From assembly GCA_964016885.1 (NCBI GenBank), contig CAXHJY010000560.1:1-54955 (forward strand): a DNA stretch of 54,955 nucleotides. The letters are read 5' to 3'. The position numbers were made by a program, and so were the translations under genes. Position 1 is the first letter of the stretch. Each line of letters starts with the position of its first letter. A model generated the notes under the pieces. The model saw nothing but the letters and a program-made list of their open reading frames with translations, made no database searches and had not been told where the DNA came from. Positions 974 to 53,659 of the stretch are shown in pieces. This stretch comes from Eledone cirrhosa. Lineage: Eukaryota.

Positions 974-1018
974 ACAATTAACAACAAAGAGCGCTTAGAA
1001 CATAGGTATATCTTTAAT

Positions 1019-1064
1019 TGCTAACAGTGTTTCATCCACACTAGAAGTGGGACTCTTCAGAGCA
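1019..1064 (-). ncRNA. Type I minimal hammerhead ribozyme (family A, inverted arm)
   Basis: Reverse complement reads TGCT-CTGAAGA-stem II-GAAAC ACT GTT-AGCA. Confidence 0.75.
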
Positions 1065-1764
1065 TAAAGAGTAAATACATAGTATACAAGCATTGACAAA
1101 GCCAAAACAGAAGAATATATGTGGGGATACCATAAGTTGGGAGGAGTTTAAAGAGTAAAGTAAAAGGAGTAAAATAAGAAAAGAGTAAAATAAAAATAAA
1201 AATAAAAAATGTTATCACTCACAGTTGGGCAGGGTTCCGTTAACATACAGCTACATACAAGTATACGCATAAGCATGAGCACCCGCATGCACCTGCACAC
1301 AAGCACCCGTATGCAACACATACAGTATACACTAATACAAAACGGCACAAGTTAAGAGATAGAGATAGATAAAAAATAGATAAGAGGTAGATAAAAAAAA
1401 AAAAATTTTATCTACCTCTTATCTATTTTTTTATCTATCTCTATCTCTTAACTTGTGCCGTTTTGTATTAGTGTATACTGTATGTGTTGCATACGGGTGC
1501 TTGTGTGTAGGTGCATGCGGGTGCTCATGCTTATGCGTATACTTGTATGTAGCTGTATGTTAACGGAACCCTGCCCAACTGTGAGTGATAACAATTTTTT
1601 TTTTTTTTTTTTTTTTTTTTTATTTTACTCTTTTCTTATTTTACTCTTTTCTTATTTTACTCCTTTTACTTTACTCTTTAAACTCCTCCCAACTTATGTT
1701 ATCCCCACATATATTCTTCTGTTTTGGCTTTGTCAATGCTTGTATACTATGTATTTACTCTTTA

Positions 1765-1810
1765 TGCTCTGAAGAGTCCCACTTCTAGTGTGGACGAAAC
1801 ACTGTTAGCA
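1765..1810 (+). ncRNA. Type I minimal hammerhead ribozyme (family A)
   Basis: TGCT CTGAAGA GTCC-CACT tct AGTG-t-GGAC GAAAC act GTT AGCA: stem I, both core boxes, stem II and a 1-bp stem III. Confidence 0.85.
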
Positions 1811-2153
1811 ATTAAAGATATACCTATGTTCTAAGCGCTCTTTGTTGTTAATTGTATTACGGCTCTGTCCTCTGACATTGAGCTAACCATATACTGCCTA
1901 TTTGATAAATGGAGTGTTACACACTCCCAATTCTCTCCCTTATATATATATATATATATATGTATATATATATATATATATATGTGTATATATATATGTA
2001 TATATATATATGTATATATATACATATATATATATATATGTATATATATATATGTATATATATACATATATATATATATATATATACATATATATGTATA
2101 TATATACATATATATGTAGATATATATATGTATATATATATATGTATATATAT

Positions 2154-2293
2154 GAGTCCAGAATTAGCCGTCGAAACGGCTTGAGCTCAGCCGTCGGGGT
2201 CTTACTGGTTCCTATTACCCACTCTACTACCCCAAGTATTGAGTACTTTGGTGCGTTATGGTCCACCTGGTTCCTTACCACATTTCCTTCGTT
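2154..2293 (+). mobile_element. Short TA-targeted element, family K (probable PLE pLTR 3' end)
   Basis: Second copy inverted at 39924-40127. Contains GAAAC-hairpin-GTC resembling the 3' half of an HHR. Confidence 0.6.
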
Positions 2294-2477
2294 ATATATA
2301 TATATATATATATATATATATATATATATACATATATATATATATATATATATATATATACATATATATATATATATATATATATACATATATATATATA
2401 TATACATATATATATATATATATATATATATATATATATATATATATATATATATATATATATATATATATATATAT

Positions 2478-49396: not shown

Positions 49397-49442
49397 TGCT
49401 AACAGTGTTTCGTCCACACTATAAGTGGGACTCATCAGAGCA
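49397..49442 (-). ncRNA. Hammerhead ribozyme (family A, inverted arm)
   Basis: Mirror of 53482-53527. Confidence 0.8.
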
Positions 49443-49945
49443 TAAAGAGTGATTACATATTACACAAGCAATAACAAATCCAAGACATTGAAGAAATAAA
49501 AAATAAACATTGAAAAATAAGCATTGAAAAATAAGAGGTGCTATCAGTCACAGTTGGGCAGGGTGCTGTTAACATACAGTTACATACAAGCATACGCATA
49601 AGCATGAGCACCCGCATGCAACCACACAACAGGCAGCCATATGCAACACATATAGTATAGACTAATACAAATAACATATCATGGACGAGTATGCAAAAGC
49701 TAAGAGATGAATGGTGGATATACAATGGGTAAAAATACAATGGGTAAAAGTAAGATAAACAAAGGATAAAAATAGATTAACCATAGATAAAAAATAGATT
49801 AACCATGGATAAGAGATAGAGAATAGATAAGGAATAGACAAGAATAGATGAGATAGATAGGAGTAGATAAAAATAGATAAAAAATAGATAAAAAATAGAC
49901 AAATAATATATATAAAAAATATATATATAAAATATACAGATAATA

Positions 49946-51334
49946 GAGGGTGGGTTGTACCGGGATGACGCCCTACTCTCCATAGATACTAGTAAGTATA
50001 ATATAGTGCGCATTAGGAAAAAGCTGCATAGTTTCTTTAAAACCTTTAATCTGTCCATTACTATGGATATAAATGATAGAACTGTTAACTTCCTTGATGT
50101 TACATTAGACTTGGATAACCATACGTACACAGCGTACCATAAGCCTAATGAATTGCTGACTTACGTGAATACCAACTCTAACCACCCTAGGTCGGTCATC
50201 AGTGGTATATTGAAGGGCGTATCTAACAGAATAAGTTCACTCTCACATAGTGAAGAGGCGTTTAACTCGCAGGCTGATTACTATAATGATGCCTTAGCTA
50301 GATCCGGCTTTAGGGACAACTGGCATTATACCCAGGGAAATAATAGTCCTAATAGAAGCTCTACCAGTGTTGTTATAACACATAATATGTCCATTGGTAA
50401 TAGAGGTGTCTCGAATAGGAGGGTTCTAAATGCCGGTGAAATGAACCAGCAGGGTACCATTAGTCTAAGTAATAGCAATGGTAGGCCTCGCAGCTCCCCG
50501 CATAAATTAGGTGAGCATAGTAACCGTAGAAATAATAATATTAATAATAATAATAATAATAATAATGATGGAAATAAAAAGAATAGAAGAAGATTGAATA
50601 CATATTTCAACCCCCCTTTTAACTCTGAAGTGGCTATAAATATTCCTAGGGCCTTCTTCTCTGTGTTAGAAAGGAACTTCCCTCCTGGTAATAGGTACCA
50701 CTCTATCCTCAATAAGAATGTTGTTAAACTTTCGTATTCTACAACCCAAAATCTGGCCTCTCATCTAGCCAATACTAATAATAGGAAAATAAAGGAAGGC
50801 CTGGACAACCTAAGCCTAGGGGAAAACACGGTAGTGGACAGAGGGAGCCTGGACACACGTGGTCAGCAAGCTGGTGATCATTCTGAGAATAGCATCACCA
50901 GAAATTGTAACTGTAGAAGGGCTTCGGGCTGCCCCCTGAATGGTTTCTGCCTTATTAGAAACATAGTTTACGCGTGTGATGTGGTAACTACGGCGCCCAC
51001 TAAAACTTATATAGGATCAACCTCCACCCCCTTTAAGACCAGGTTTAACTCTCACCAGTGCACTTTTAGGCACAATAAACTGAGGAATTCCACCTCCTTG
51101 GCAGCGTACGTCCACAATTTAAAAAATGCACGAACACATTACACCCTCACTTGGCGGCAGGTTGCTAAATCCCATCCATATACTCCTCATAATAGAGTAT
51201 GTAACCTATGCCTTGCTGAATCCCACTCTATTATATTTGCTAAATGCTCTCTACTAAACAGAAAGTCAGAAATATTTTCCTCTTGCCCCCACCGAATATT
51301 AAGCTCTTTCTTCTACTTTAAACCTATTAGCTAG
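49946..51334 (+). pseudogene. PLE RT C-half + GIY-YIG endonuclease (Hydra-type), 5'-truncated but open
   Basis: GLYRDD, NFLDVTLDL, SNHP, YFNPPFN, CNCRRASGCPLNGFC, IVY...YIGST, CNLC, CPH. Confidence 0.92.
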
Positions 51335-53481
51335 CACTTTCTTAATTCTCCAGTTGGGCTATCTTGTGTAACTGTCTCTTATTGTGTGTAATTGTTTCCT
51401 ATTGTTTGTCTTCTATGTATATGAGTCTGTGTGTGTATATGTATGCCTGCGGGAGAATATTGATCTGGATATTGAGGTGTACAGGTGAGTTGGTGTGTAT
51501 GTTAATAAGCACCCCTGTTTGGCACAGTGGATGTGACCCATCCACGATCGCCTAGCCACCCTTAGTGCATTGGTGGGTCTATCCCAACGTGTACTTTACG
51601 GATCTGTACCTCTGTATGCGCATGAGTTATGATGTAATATATCTATGTAGAGCGTGTGCTGCGATATAGGCTGCACAAATGAAATCTAGCCTGTAACTGT
51701 GGGCGGACCTGTGCCATCTCGCCGTGAGCAGTAGATACGTAGCACATGCACGTGTTACCCTCCTATTCTGTGGTTTAAGATCTACAGGCTGACTTCGGAG
51801 AGCTTTGGCCCGGTGTTGTAGTCTTTCTAGCACAATCGGCCTTCCATATATTGACGGTCGTTGTTATTATCCCAAAAGTAATGTTTTGGCCCCGATAGCC
51901 CTCCGCAGTTATTAACGGTCTGTTTACACTTGAATCGGGCGACTACACGTGCGGACATGCATCTCTTCGTAAGAATTTACTTTGATTAATTTTTGCTGCA
52001 TCTCCTCGTAAGAATTTATCTTGAATGTATTATCTGTGACCAGTGTGAGCGACTGTGGTGGATTCTGCCTTTGTTGGCCTAATGTGATATTTCTGTGTAT
52101 TATATCCGCTTTGATCCGGGTGTCCTACGCTGTGTGTGTGTGCGTGTGTGTCTGTATATACATTTATATGTGTATGGGTGTAGGTGGTTGTATATGTCTA
52201 TCTATAAATATATATATATGTATACCGTCTCTGCATATGCATGTGGTGTGTGTATATGCATATACGTACTAACCATATTGTTGTGTATAATCTTGGGATG
52301 CCTCAATGTTGTGATTTCATGGATATTGGCTTTTGAAGCTATTTTTTATATGCGCTGTTGAGTATGCATATTAACCCGCCTAACCCAACTGTATTTGCTT
52401 GCTTTCGGCTAGCCCACCTGCACTTGCTTGCTTTCGGCCCACTTATCTGCCTCTTGATGTTCATGTTGATGTAAACGATTTTGCTTGCTACCTTGTGACG
52501 TTGTGACACTCAGTTATCTGCCCATGGATGTTCCTGCTGCTGCATGTGAATTTACCTACCTTCCTTGCATACGTCCTTGCTAGTGATGTGGATATACCTC
52601 TGTTGACCAATGGATTCCTGCCCGAGTGTGAACCTTTTGTGATTGCCCCACCGCTCAACTGTGTGAATGCACACCCGTGACTTTCGAGTGTGAACTTCTG
52701 TGACTGCCTAACCCGGATGTCTCCATTGCATTGCAATGGTCAACTCAATCGAGTGTGGACATAGCACCTGTTGATTATAAATCTCATTTGAGCATTTGAT
52801 TGTTGTGATATGGCTAACTGTAACACTTAAGGCGTTCGTGTGCCCCTGATATATTCAAGAATTATATTCAAAACATATATATCTTATCTCACTTTACTTT
52901 ATTTTATTTTATTTCATTGTATTTTATTTTATATAATTTTATTTTATTTTATTCTTTACCCTTTATCTCTATTATCTGTATATTTTATATATATATTTTT
53001 TATATTTTTTATATATATTATTTGTCTATTTTTTATCTATTTTTTATCTATTTTTATCTACTCCTATCTATCTCATCTATTCTTGTCTATTCCTTATCTA
53101 TTCTCTATCTCTTATCCATGGTTAATCTATTTTTTATCTATGGTTAATCTATTTTTATCCTTTGTTTATCTTACTTTTACCCATTGTATTTTTACCCATT
53201 GTATATCCACCATTCATCTCTTAGCTTTTGCATACTCGTCCATGATATGTTATTTGTATTAGTCTATACTATATGTGTTGCATATGGCTGCCTGTTGTGT
53301 GGTTGCATGCGGGTGCTCATGCTTATGCGTATGCTTGTATGTAACTGTATGTTAACAGCACCCTGCCCAACTGTGACTGATAGCACCTCTTATTTTTCAA
53401 TGCTTATTTTTCAATGTTTATTTTTTATTTCTTCAATGTCTTGGATTTGTTATTGCTTGTGTAATATGTAATCACTCTTTA

Positions 53482-53527
53482 TGCTCTGATGAGTCCCACT
53501 TATAGTGTGGACGAAACACTGTTAGCA
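53482..53527 (+). ncRNA. Type I minimal hammerhead ribozyme (family A)
   Basis: TGCT CTGATGA GTCC-CACT tat AGTG-t-GGAC GAAAC act GTT AGCA. Confidence 0.87.
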
Positions 53528-53659
53528 AGTAAAGATATACCTATGCTCTAAGCGTTCTTTGTTGTTAATTATATTACGGCTCTGTCCTCAGACATCGAGC
53601 TAACCTTATACTGCCTATTGGATAAGTGGAGTGTTACACACTCCTAATCCTCTCCCTTA

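Follow-up and report, generated by a model that had tools for sequence, protein, structure and literature searches.

What fixes the ends of a retroelement that inserts, mostly as a palindrome, into simple (TA)n repeats? The question is raised by a contig of Eledone cirrhosa (CAXHJY010000560.1, positions 1 to 54,955, forward strand; hereafter the window, meaning this whole stretch of 54,955 nucleotides (nt)), AT-rich animal DNA in which (TA)n tracts are broken up by short, mostly palindromic insertions. These insertions are Penelope-like retroelements (PLEs) sitting in (TA)n. The original prediction was that inverted arms of their pseudo-long-terminal repeats (pLTRs) stop, across unrelated families, at fixed breakpoints just upstream of an ACTC-like word that acts as a conserved cis signal. 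A conserved signal does mark these ends, only it is not a linear word: ACTC is the 5′ strand of a paired, bulged stem that covaries, lies on the sense strand and occurs in tandem, and elements end just before both copies. Judging from these sequence patterns, we consider it likely (probability roughly 0.7) that each stem binds the element's reverse transcriptase (RT) on RNA and positions internal priming just upstream.

All eight junction contexts quoted in the original prediction were located in the window, and separate copies of a family do stop at the same position while differing in their internal junctions: A at 975 and 49355, F at 12807 and 45663, and P, named in that prediction after position 2808, at 9408 and 35665. 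The two copies of A and the two of F stop at one tail end as well, both copies of K have the same tail end, and the copies of L, a family without an intact strand in the window, also end alike (27947, 44204). Position 9408 had been taken for an inverted-arm end; it is instead the direct 3′ pLTR end of a full-length P element (2808-9408), and the signal marks direct ends and tail ends too, rather than inverted arms alone. Every one of the 10 inverted insertions of stem-bearing families has one short and one long end, so the extension at one end only that defines a PLE tail is found in 10/10; the chance of this would be ~0.001 if each end were picked freely between two sites. Tails measure 50-168 nt across the window and 61-168 nt in stem-bearing families.

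That such coincident ends are segmental duplicates of single insertions, or a splice boundary, is scarcely credible. One pair, D1 and D2, is 99% identical over its whole length and hence counts as a single duplicate pair, but beyond it segmental duplication was refuted: the internal junctions and lengths of A, F, P and K vary from copy to copy, and the rule described below holds across families that cannot be aligned and in distant relatives. Nor is a splice boundary supported, the junctions being places in genomic DNA where an element meets (TA)n.

Nine families have an intact strand in the window, L not being among them. ACTC starts within 8 nt of the breakpoint in seven of the nine, as had been claimed, but the claim does not extend to family D, to which we return. 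The enrichment over dinucleotide-shuffled tails is real (p ~1e-7, or 2.6e-5 when multiplied by the 256 possible 4-mers). Counted after maximal TA microhomology to the target, the gap between the last base common to the short arm and ACTC or GCTC is 4 nt in A, 2 in B, 5 in C, 4 in F, 7 in G, 5 in H, 2 in K and 4 in P, a range of 2-7 nt.

The word belongs to a structure of the form RCTC-helix-loop-helix′-T(T/C/A)-GAGY, complete in seven of the nine families (A, B, C, F, G, K and P) and beginning 2-7 nt past the short end. Its downstream tetramer partner is GAGT, or GAGC in A, where GCTC/GAGC is a compensatory pair in which G-C replaces A-U. The upper helix differs in each family, the 2-nt T(T/C/A) bulge is always on the 3′ side, and loops span 4-63 nt. 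Scanning both strands of the window with a 2-nt bulge gave 16 matches, of which 10 come after short ends and the other 6 sit within the arms or centres of palindromes; with a bulge of 1, 3, 4 or 5 nt there were 2-6 matches, and without a bulge there were 13. Shuffled tails contained a complete stem at a frequency of at most 0.002 in each family, against 7/9 real tails. Pair probabilities at 37 °C run from 1.00 (A) down to 0.27 (B), and Rfam has no match in the window at gathering level. The families do not align to one another (local scores 14-33), and because they have this structure in common regardless, they are probably diverged relatives rather than unrelated, as had been stated.

Relatives beyond the window bear out the pairing. 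We collected 77 marine-metagenome loci by protein alone, using an alignment of P0001, the P open reading frame (ORF), and 24 of its 71 homologues, with no use of the motif; no relatives were found among viral contigs. The stem pattern matched 64 times in sense and 24 times in antisense, with 8-17 sense matches for other bulge sizes. After 20 loci with a late-starting protein match and 3 with <170 nt upstream were left out, 38 of the remaining 54 carried a stem upstream of the ORF, compared with 2 in antisense and a shuffle mean of 1.85; several of the 16 loci without one had truncated upstream sequence or something other than a 5′ untranslated region (UTR) there. Sequence alone served to choose 117 distinct sites; in the register with a 2-nt bulge, three positions of these pair in 95/117, 69/110 and 55/88 cases, counts matched by partner shuffles in 0/5000 trials each, while the fourth position was not significant (422/5000). 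Upper-helix swaps among the relatives include C-G/U-A and A-U/U-A/G-C/C-G. Most relatives use G-C as the closing pair, the window stems A-U, and loci L070 (116-195) and L076 (180-262) U-A; in these two loci both tandem stems read TCTC/GAGA, so that two copies within an element have changed together. Most of the relatives' stems are ~16-25 nt long.

A covariance model built from 44 metagenome stems, none from the window, found 48 matches in 43 non-training loci, 46 of them in sense, although some of these loci are close kin of training loci. The alignment of those matches, which was fitted to the model, shows 35 both-side changes against 11.5 in shuffles. Back in the window, the top 7 of 10 model matches are the stems of K2, K1, G, A2, A1 and B and that of a tail-only fragment. 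RNAalifold predicted no pairs from a plain MAFFT alignment of 16 stems, because MAFFT misaligned their 5′ halves.

The same sequence conservation could reflect recognition of DNA. The stem, as an extruded hairpin or single-stranded cDNA, might be bound by the GIY-YIG endonuclease, which would nick beside it and resolve an intermediate, making the ends cut sites. Craig et al. attribute tails to endonuclease resolution in passages of PMC8557442, the tail is reportedly required for recognition by the D. virilis endonuclease (a finding cited in PMC11167929), sequence conservation extends over the CTC/GAG core and a downstream ACT, and wobble counts show only weak strand asymmetry. Speaking against recognition as a duplex, however, half-sites are spaced by anything from a few nt to ~100 nt and the helix covaries; there is TA microhomology between ends and target; and the tails of Poseidon PAc map to RT start sites in vitro, as passages of PMC11167929 report. 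We judge recognition as DNA unlikely. Of the three roles the original prediction had offered for its signal, priming is the likeliest, with a DNA endonuclease site as a weaker rival.

The relatives also have two stems. We found 38 tandem pairs in 37 metagenome loci, spaced 52-83 nt apart, and ends fall before either copy. Among 13 repeat copies that run into microsatellite-like sequence, 8 stop 0-4 nt before a stem, a further 3 (L038, L042 and L050) stop 4-5 nt before a stem judged degenerate by eye, and 2 (L001 and L016) do not stop before one. Of 86 distinct stems, 42 have a TA dinucleotide that ends exactly 4 nt ahead of them. Tandem stems with ends before either copy predict a second stem past the tail end in the window, and P has one 5 nt past its tail end, at 3367-3482. 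Public data for P agree with both sites: among public-run contigs compared with 2710-5950, 9 from one organism and 2 from another continue into (AT)n behind 3224, and at 3364 the raw-read depth drops ~tenfold, with 199 molecules ending there at depth 408 (run X16), these runs being RAD-seq with uneven depth. Since the P tail ends 5 nt before the second stem, and relatives have tandem stems and ends to match, the tail is likely the spacing between two stems, each positioning internal RT initiation.

Might the stems serve translation, hammerhead folding or packaging instead, with ends nearby only through AT-rich microhomology to (TA)n? The stems do lie in the 5′ UTR, on the sense strand between the hammerhead region and the start codon, with an AT-rich flank upstream, and family D has fixed-looking ends without a stem. 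Yet the pLTRs are AT-rich throughout, and ends nonetheless lie 0-7 nt from a stem in the window and in 8/13 metagenome cases, when relaxed stems occur just 157 times in 259,420 nt; we find this very improbable.

The inverted arms bear on a further possibility, that each is the fold-back second strand of one cDNA that stops, or switches to the target, at a stem acting as a polymerase block. Near-perfect hairpins in A1, B, K2 and P35 would suit this, as would the self-priming proposed for PLE palindromes in passages of PMC3846280. Against it, the 284-nt short arm of F2 meets no more than the final 39 nt of the tail and, having no counterpart in its own long arm, is not a fold-back copy; the short arms of G and D1 reach beyond their long arms; the same site ends direct pLTRs without inversion (9408; L006, L013, L034, L052, L056, L066, L070); and tail ends likewise precede a stem. 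Fold-back synthesis is accordingly improbable.

Internal priming on RNA, by contrast, suggests how such arms could arise, and we propose the following, tentatively and with some doubt, as a two-site RNA landing pad: a clade-wide bulged stem, present in two copies, would load the telomerase-like RT at each copy, and cDNA synthesis would begin ~4 nt upstream of each, at the two sides of a single (TA)n break. The GIY-YIG domain would cut (TA)n; a target 3′ end would pair with UA or UAU ~4 nt 5′ of a stem and be extended; one side of the break would start at stem 1, giving the short end, and the other at stem 2, giving the long end; and the two cDNAs would be joined at their far ends into a head-to-head insertion with one short and one long end. 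In perfect hairpins both cDNAs would have run off the same RNA end. A stem that directs a start would not itself be copied, so a full-length copy would need tandem read-through or a circular template; that the full-length P copy ends before any stem implies a template longer than the insertion, that is, tandem or circular. If correct, a single rule, programmed twin internal priming on one RNA, would account for the tail, for insertions inverted head to head and for templates having to be tandem or circular.

Two known systems offer comparisons. In LINE-1 twin priming, two target 3′ ends prime on the element RNA and produce an inversion; of these starts, one is at the poly(A) end and the other has no set position, whereas structure would fix both starts here, each of them internal, and complete overlap of the arms is possible. 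The hepadnavirus epsilon element is a bulged stem-loop that positions RT priming, protein-primed in the bulge. In our elements too a bulged hairpin is proposed to recruit an RT and to set where it starts internally, but the primer would be nicked target DNA and would act upstream of the stem.

Several observations weigh against priming at the stems. The stems of B, F and G pair with a probability of only 0.27-0.39 when isolated tails are folded; H has ACTC with a degenerate 3′ partner; and D, whose three copies were absent from the original prediction, has neither ACTC nor stem at its ends. The partner shuffles ignore relatedness among loci, and the lower helix is nearly invariant in the non-training matches. 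G-U against A-C counts (24 vs 18 and 7 vs 3) do not settle the folding strand, and wobble counts do not tell RNA from single-stranded DNA folding. Only 3 of the 7 top window matches to the covariance model reach E <0.05, and it missed the long-loop stems of C, F and P. P alone has an intact 5′ UTR in the window, so stem 2 could be checked only there, and that stem has a 100-nt loop and a pairing probability of 0.48, falling to 0.07 when a longer piece is folded; B, C, G and H each show their long end in a single instance. Lastly, PAc starts from within its ORF, chiefly at an AC-rich stem-loop that has no RCTC/GAGY (passages of PMC11167929).

To which PLEs do the insertions belong? ORFs were found in two families, P (P0001, broken) and A (P0002, 5′-truncated), and by their motifs both appear to match the Hydra clade. 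Passages of PMC8557442 list for that clade a single ORF with a C-terminal GIY-YIG after the RT, an N-terminal RWK motif, DKT instead of DKG, CxCX5C, CxxC and CxH but no CCHH late in the endonuclease, a hammerhead and (TA)n targets; the window elements resemble it in RT plus GIY-YIG, DKT, CxCX5C and (TA)n targets, and they have a putative hammerhead. Hydra elements are usually <3 kb there, and P and A2 are longer. In P0001 and P0002, YRDD is followed by a GIY-YIG-like Y...YIG segment. DKT is at residue 95 of P0001 (homologues: DKT in 50/71, DKG in 5/71), the CxCX5C linker is at residue 651 of P0001 and 326 of P0002, the N-terminal motif is RWR in P0001 and RWK in the homologue consensus, and CxxC and CxH are present in P0002 and in the downstream frame of P. 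Neither ORF has a Pfam match. The flanks examined are (TA)n, with the 5′ boundary of P itself as the exception. An initial guess of the Neptune clade was dropped after these motif tests; neither P0001 nor P0002 has the CX2-5CxxC linker of Neptune and Nematis. B, C, F, G, H and K, in whose window copies no ORF was identified, may belong to the same clade on the strength of their common stem.

A hammerhead core with stem II is present in A and a variant core in B, and every stem family has a GAAAY 48-95 nt ahead of stem 1. K1, K2 and P35 have their 5′ boundaries or hairpin centres (2153, 40063 and 35442-35466) at the hammerhead 5′ edge or within it, and an inversion joint seen in reads (3013/3015) falls at the same position of P.

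Much of this has precedent: fixed ends, tails, inverted pLTRs, (TA)n targeting and internal initiation are already known. A fixed end with an optional tail has been described for PLEs (passages of PMC8557442 and PMC3846280), with tails of 30-40 nt (PMC8557442, PMC11167929), shorter than those in the window. Passages of PMC11167929 tie the tail of Poseidon PAc to two internal RT start sites in vitro, which bound it, with both target strands extended and RNA needed to +172; no conserved binding motif is defined for PAc in them. Our elements resemble PAc in the optional tail at one end and an AT-rich target and, as proposed here, would also do so in two internal RT starts and extension of both target strands; they differ in having 5′ UTR ends, one immediately ahead of each of two similar stems. 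What appears to be new is the tandem bulged stem and the rule that places both ends just before a copy, neither of which was found in the literature searched. No account of the stems turned up in that literature or in Rfam (Repbase, subscription papers and figure images lay outside the scope); the text passages and supplement text of PMC8557442, figure images being outside the search, do not mention them or tie them to ends, and the words stem, hairpin and tail are absent from the text portion of bioRxiv 10.64898/2026.07.22.740005.

The stem is nevertheless present in published consensi. By eye, 5 of the 6 Hydra consensi in File S7 of PMC8557442 show it or a degenerate form: Hydra-1_Ajap begins 2 nt before stem 1 and holds both stems, a single stem lies near the 3′ end of Hydra-2_Amil and of Hydra-2_Ajap, the forms in Hydra-1_Crog and Hydra-1_Obim are degenerate, and Hydra-1_Amil shows none. 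End choice, tails and inverted repeats are named as an open problem of PLEs in PMC8557442. A covarying stem that predicts both ends gives a mutational handle on RNA recognition by a telomerase-related RT and a rule for annotating Hydra boundaries, and may offer a minimal cis element for retroelement-based insertion tools.

Table 1. Insertions, stems and associated features by window coordinate; gap, distance from short end to stem; decimal values, pair probability; E, covariance-model E value.
Feature	Position	Strand	Description
A1	975-1940	+	Near-perfect palindrome; inverted short arm from 975, sense arm common to 1857, 83-nt tail to 1940
A1 stem 1	1862-1883	+	GCTC/GAGC, TGTC/GACA, TT bulge; 4 nt past short end; 1.00
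K1	2153-2292		Long arm alone
K1 stem 1	2221-2244	+	ACTC/GAGT, TACT/AGTA, TT bulge; E 0.0006
P full-length	2808-9408	+	5′ pLTR, two stems, broken ORF, direct 3′ pLTR ending at short site 9408
P stem 1	3229-3309	+	ACTC/GAGT, TGTA/TACA, TT bulge, 63-nt loop; 4 nt past short site 3224; 0.92
P stem 2	3367-3482	+	GCTC/GAGC, CTA/TAG, TT bulge, 100-nt loop; 5 nt past tail end 3361; ATG at 3513
P0001 (Hydra-type ORF)	3571-5655	+	RWR, DKT, YRDD, CxCX5C, GIY-YIG start; stops and frameshift
F1	10194-12807	-	Palindrome; short end 12807-12810; 168-nt tail ending 10194
F stem 1	10289-10357	-	ACTC/GAGT, CAAG/CTTG, TT bulge, 51-nt loop; gap 4 nt; 0.37
G insertion	17832-19155	+	Short end 17832; tail to 19155
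G stem 1	19069-19093	+	ACTC/GAGT, CAGT/ACTG, TA bulge; gap 7 nt; E 0.017
H insertion	19386-19684	+	ACTC at 19629, GTGT/ACAC hairpin, degenerate 3′ partner
D1	19793-20300	+	Duplicate D2 23791-24295; D3 42904-43300; short and long ends, no stem; exception
B palindrome	22781-23309	+	Tail to 23309
B stem 1	23217-23256	+	ACTC/GAGT, 6-bp upper helix including G-U pair, TC bulge; gap 2 nt; 0.27
L1	27947-28099	-	L2 at 44204-45439; common end; L2 hammerhead-like GAAAG 57 nt upstream
Tail-only fragment	34434-34534	+	GCTC/GAGC stem, TC bulge; model rank 7, E 1.2
P35 palindrome	35095-35665	-	Long arm ending 35095, stem 35224-35144, short arm ending 35665-35668
C palindrome	35817-39836	+	1.7-kb arms; tail to 39836
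C stem 1	39742-39791	+	ACTC/GAGT, TGT/ACA, TC bulge; gap 5 nt; 0.98
K2 palindrome	39926-40125	-	Stem 39997-39974; short end 40125; E 0.0003
F2	45663-45978	+	Inverted short arm joined to end of tail; arms without common sequence
A2	49355-53657	+	Inverted short arm, 5′-truncated Hydra ORF P0002 (49931-51334), 3′ UTR, pLTR, tail
A2 hammerhead core	53486-53517	+	CTGATGA...GAAAC; GAAAC begins 66 nt before stem 1; no Rfam gathering-level score
A2 stem 1	53579-53600	+	GCTC/GAGC, TGTC/GACA, TC bulge; gap 4 nt

Some insertions sit at the margins of this scheme. Family D is possibly another PLE clade or a non-autonomous element: it has a hammerhead-like core ~220 nt upstream, the short arms of D1 and D3 reach nearly the same 5′ point, and the short end of D3 lies ~15 nt further on than that of D1 and D2. 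The first ~13 bases of the tail-only fragment at 34434-34534 match the inverted end of L, and it may be L's missing tail. A further insertion at 34699-35069 shows a CTGAAGA core and what looks by eye like a degenerate bulged stem near 34968-35000, with no short arm. An element at 40700-40900 (-) has a clear hammerhead core ~100 nt before its (TA)n end, and no bulged stem was found in it.

Other repeats share the window. Within the 3′ pLTR of P, a SINE-like insertion (9010-9184) shows an apparent ~18 bp duplication at the hammerhead 5′ edge and has related copies at 40142-40260. Two different RVT_1-type RT fragments, without the Hydra motifs tested, stand face to face at 13453-15807, and a LINE-like element at 28340-32533 (-) has Pfam matches to RT and endonuclease/phosphatase domains. 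Another repeat family (26799-27739, 33704-34320) carries a perfect, unbulged ACTC/GAGT hairpin ~10 nt inside its end. Finally, a (TA)n tract at 48118-48258, flanked by a 16-bp inverted duplication, lies at the 5′ truncation point of another Hydra-type ORF (46933-48133, -).

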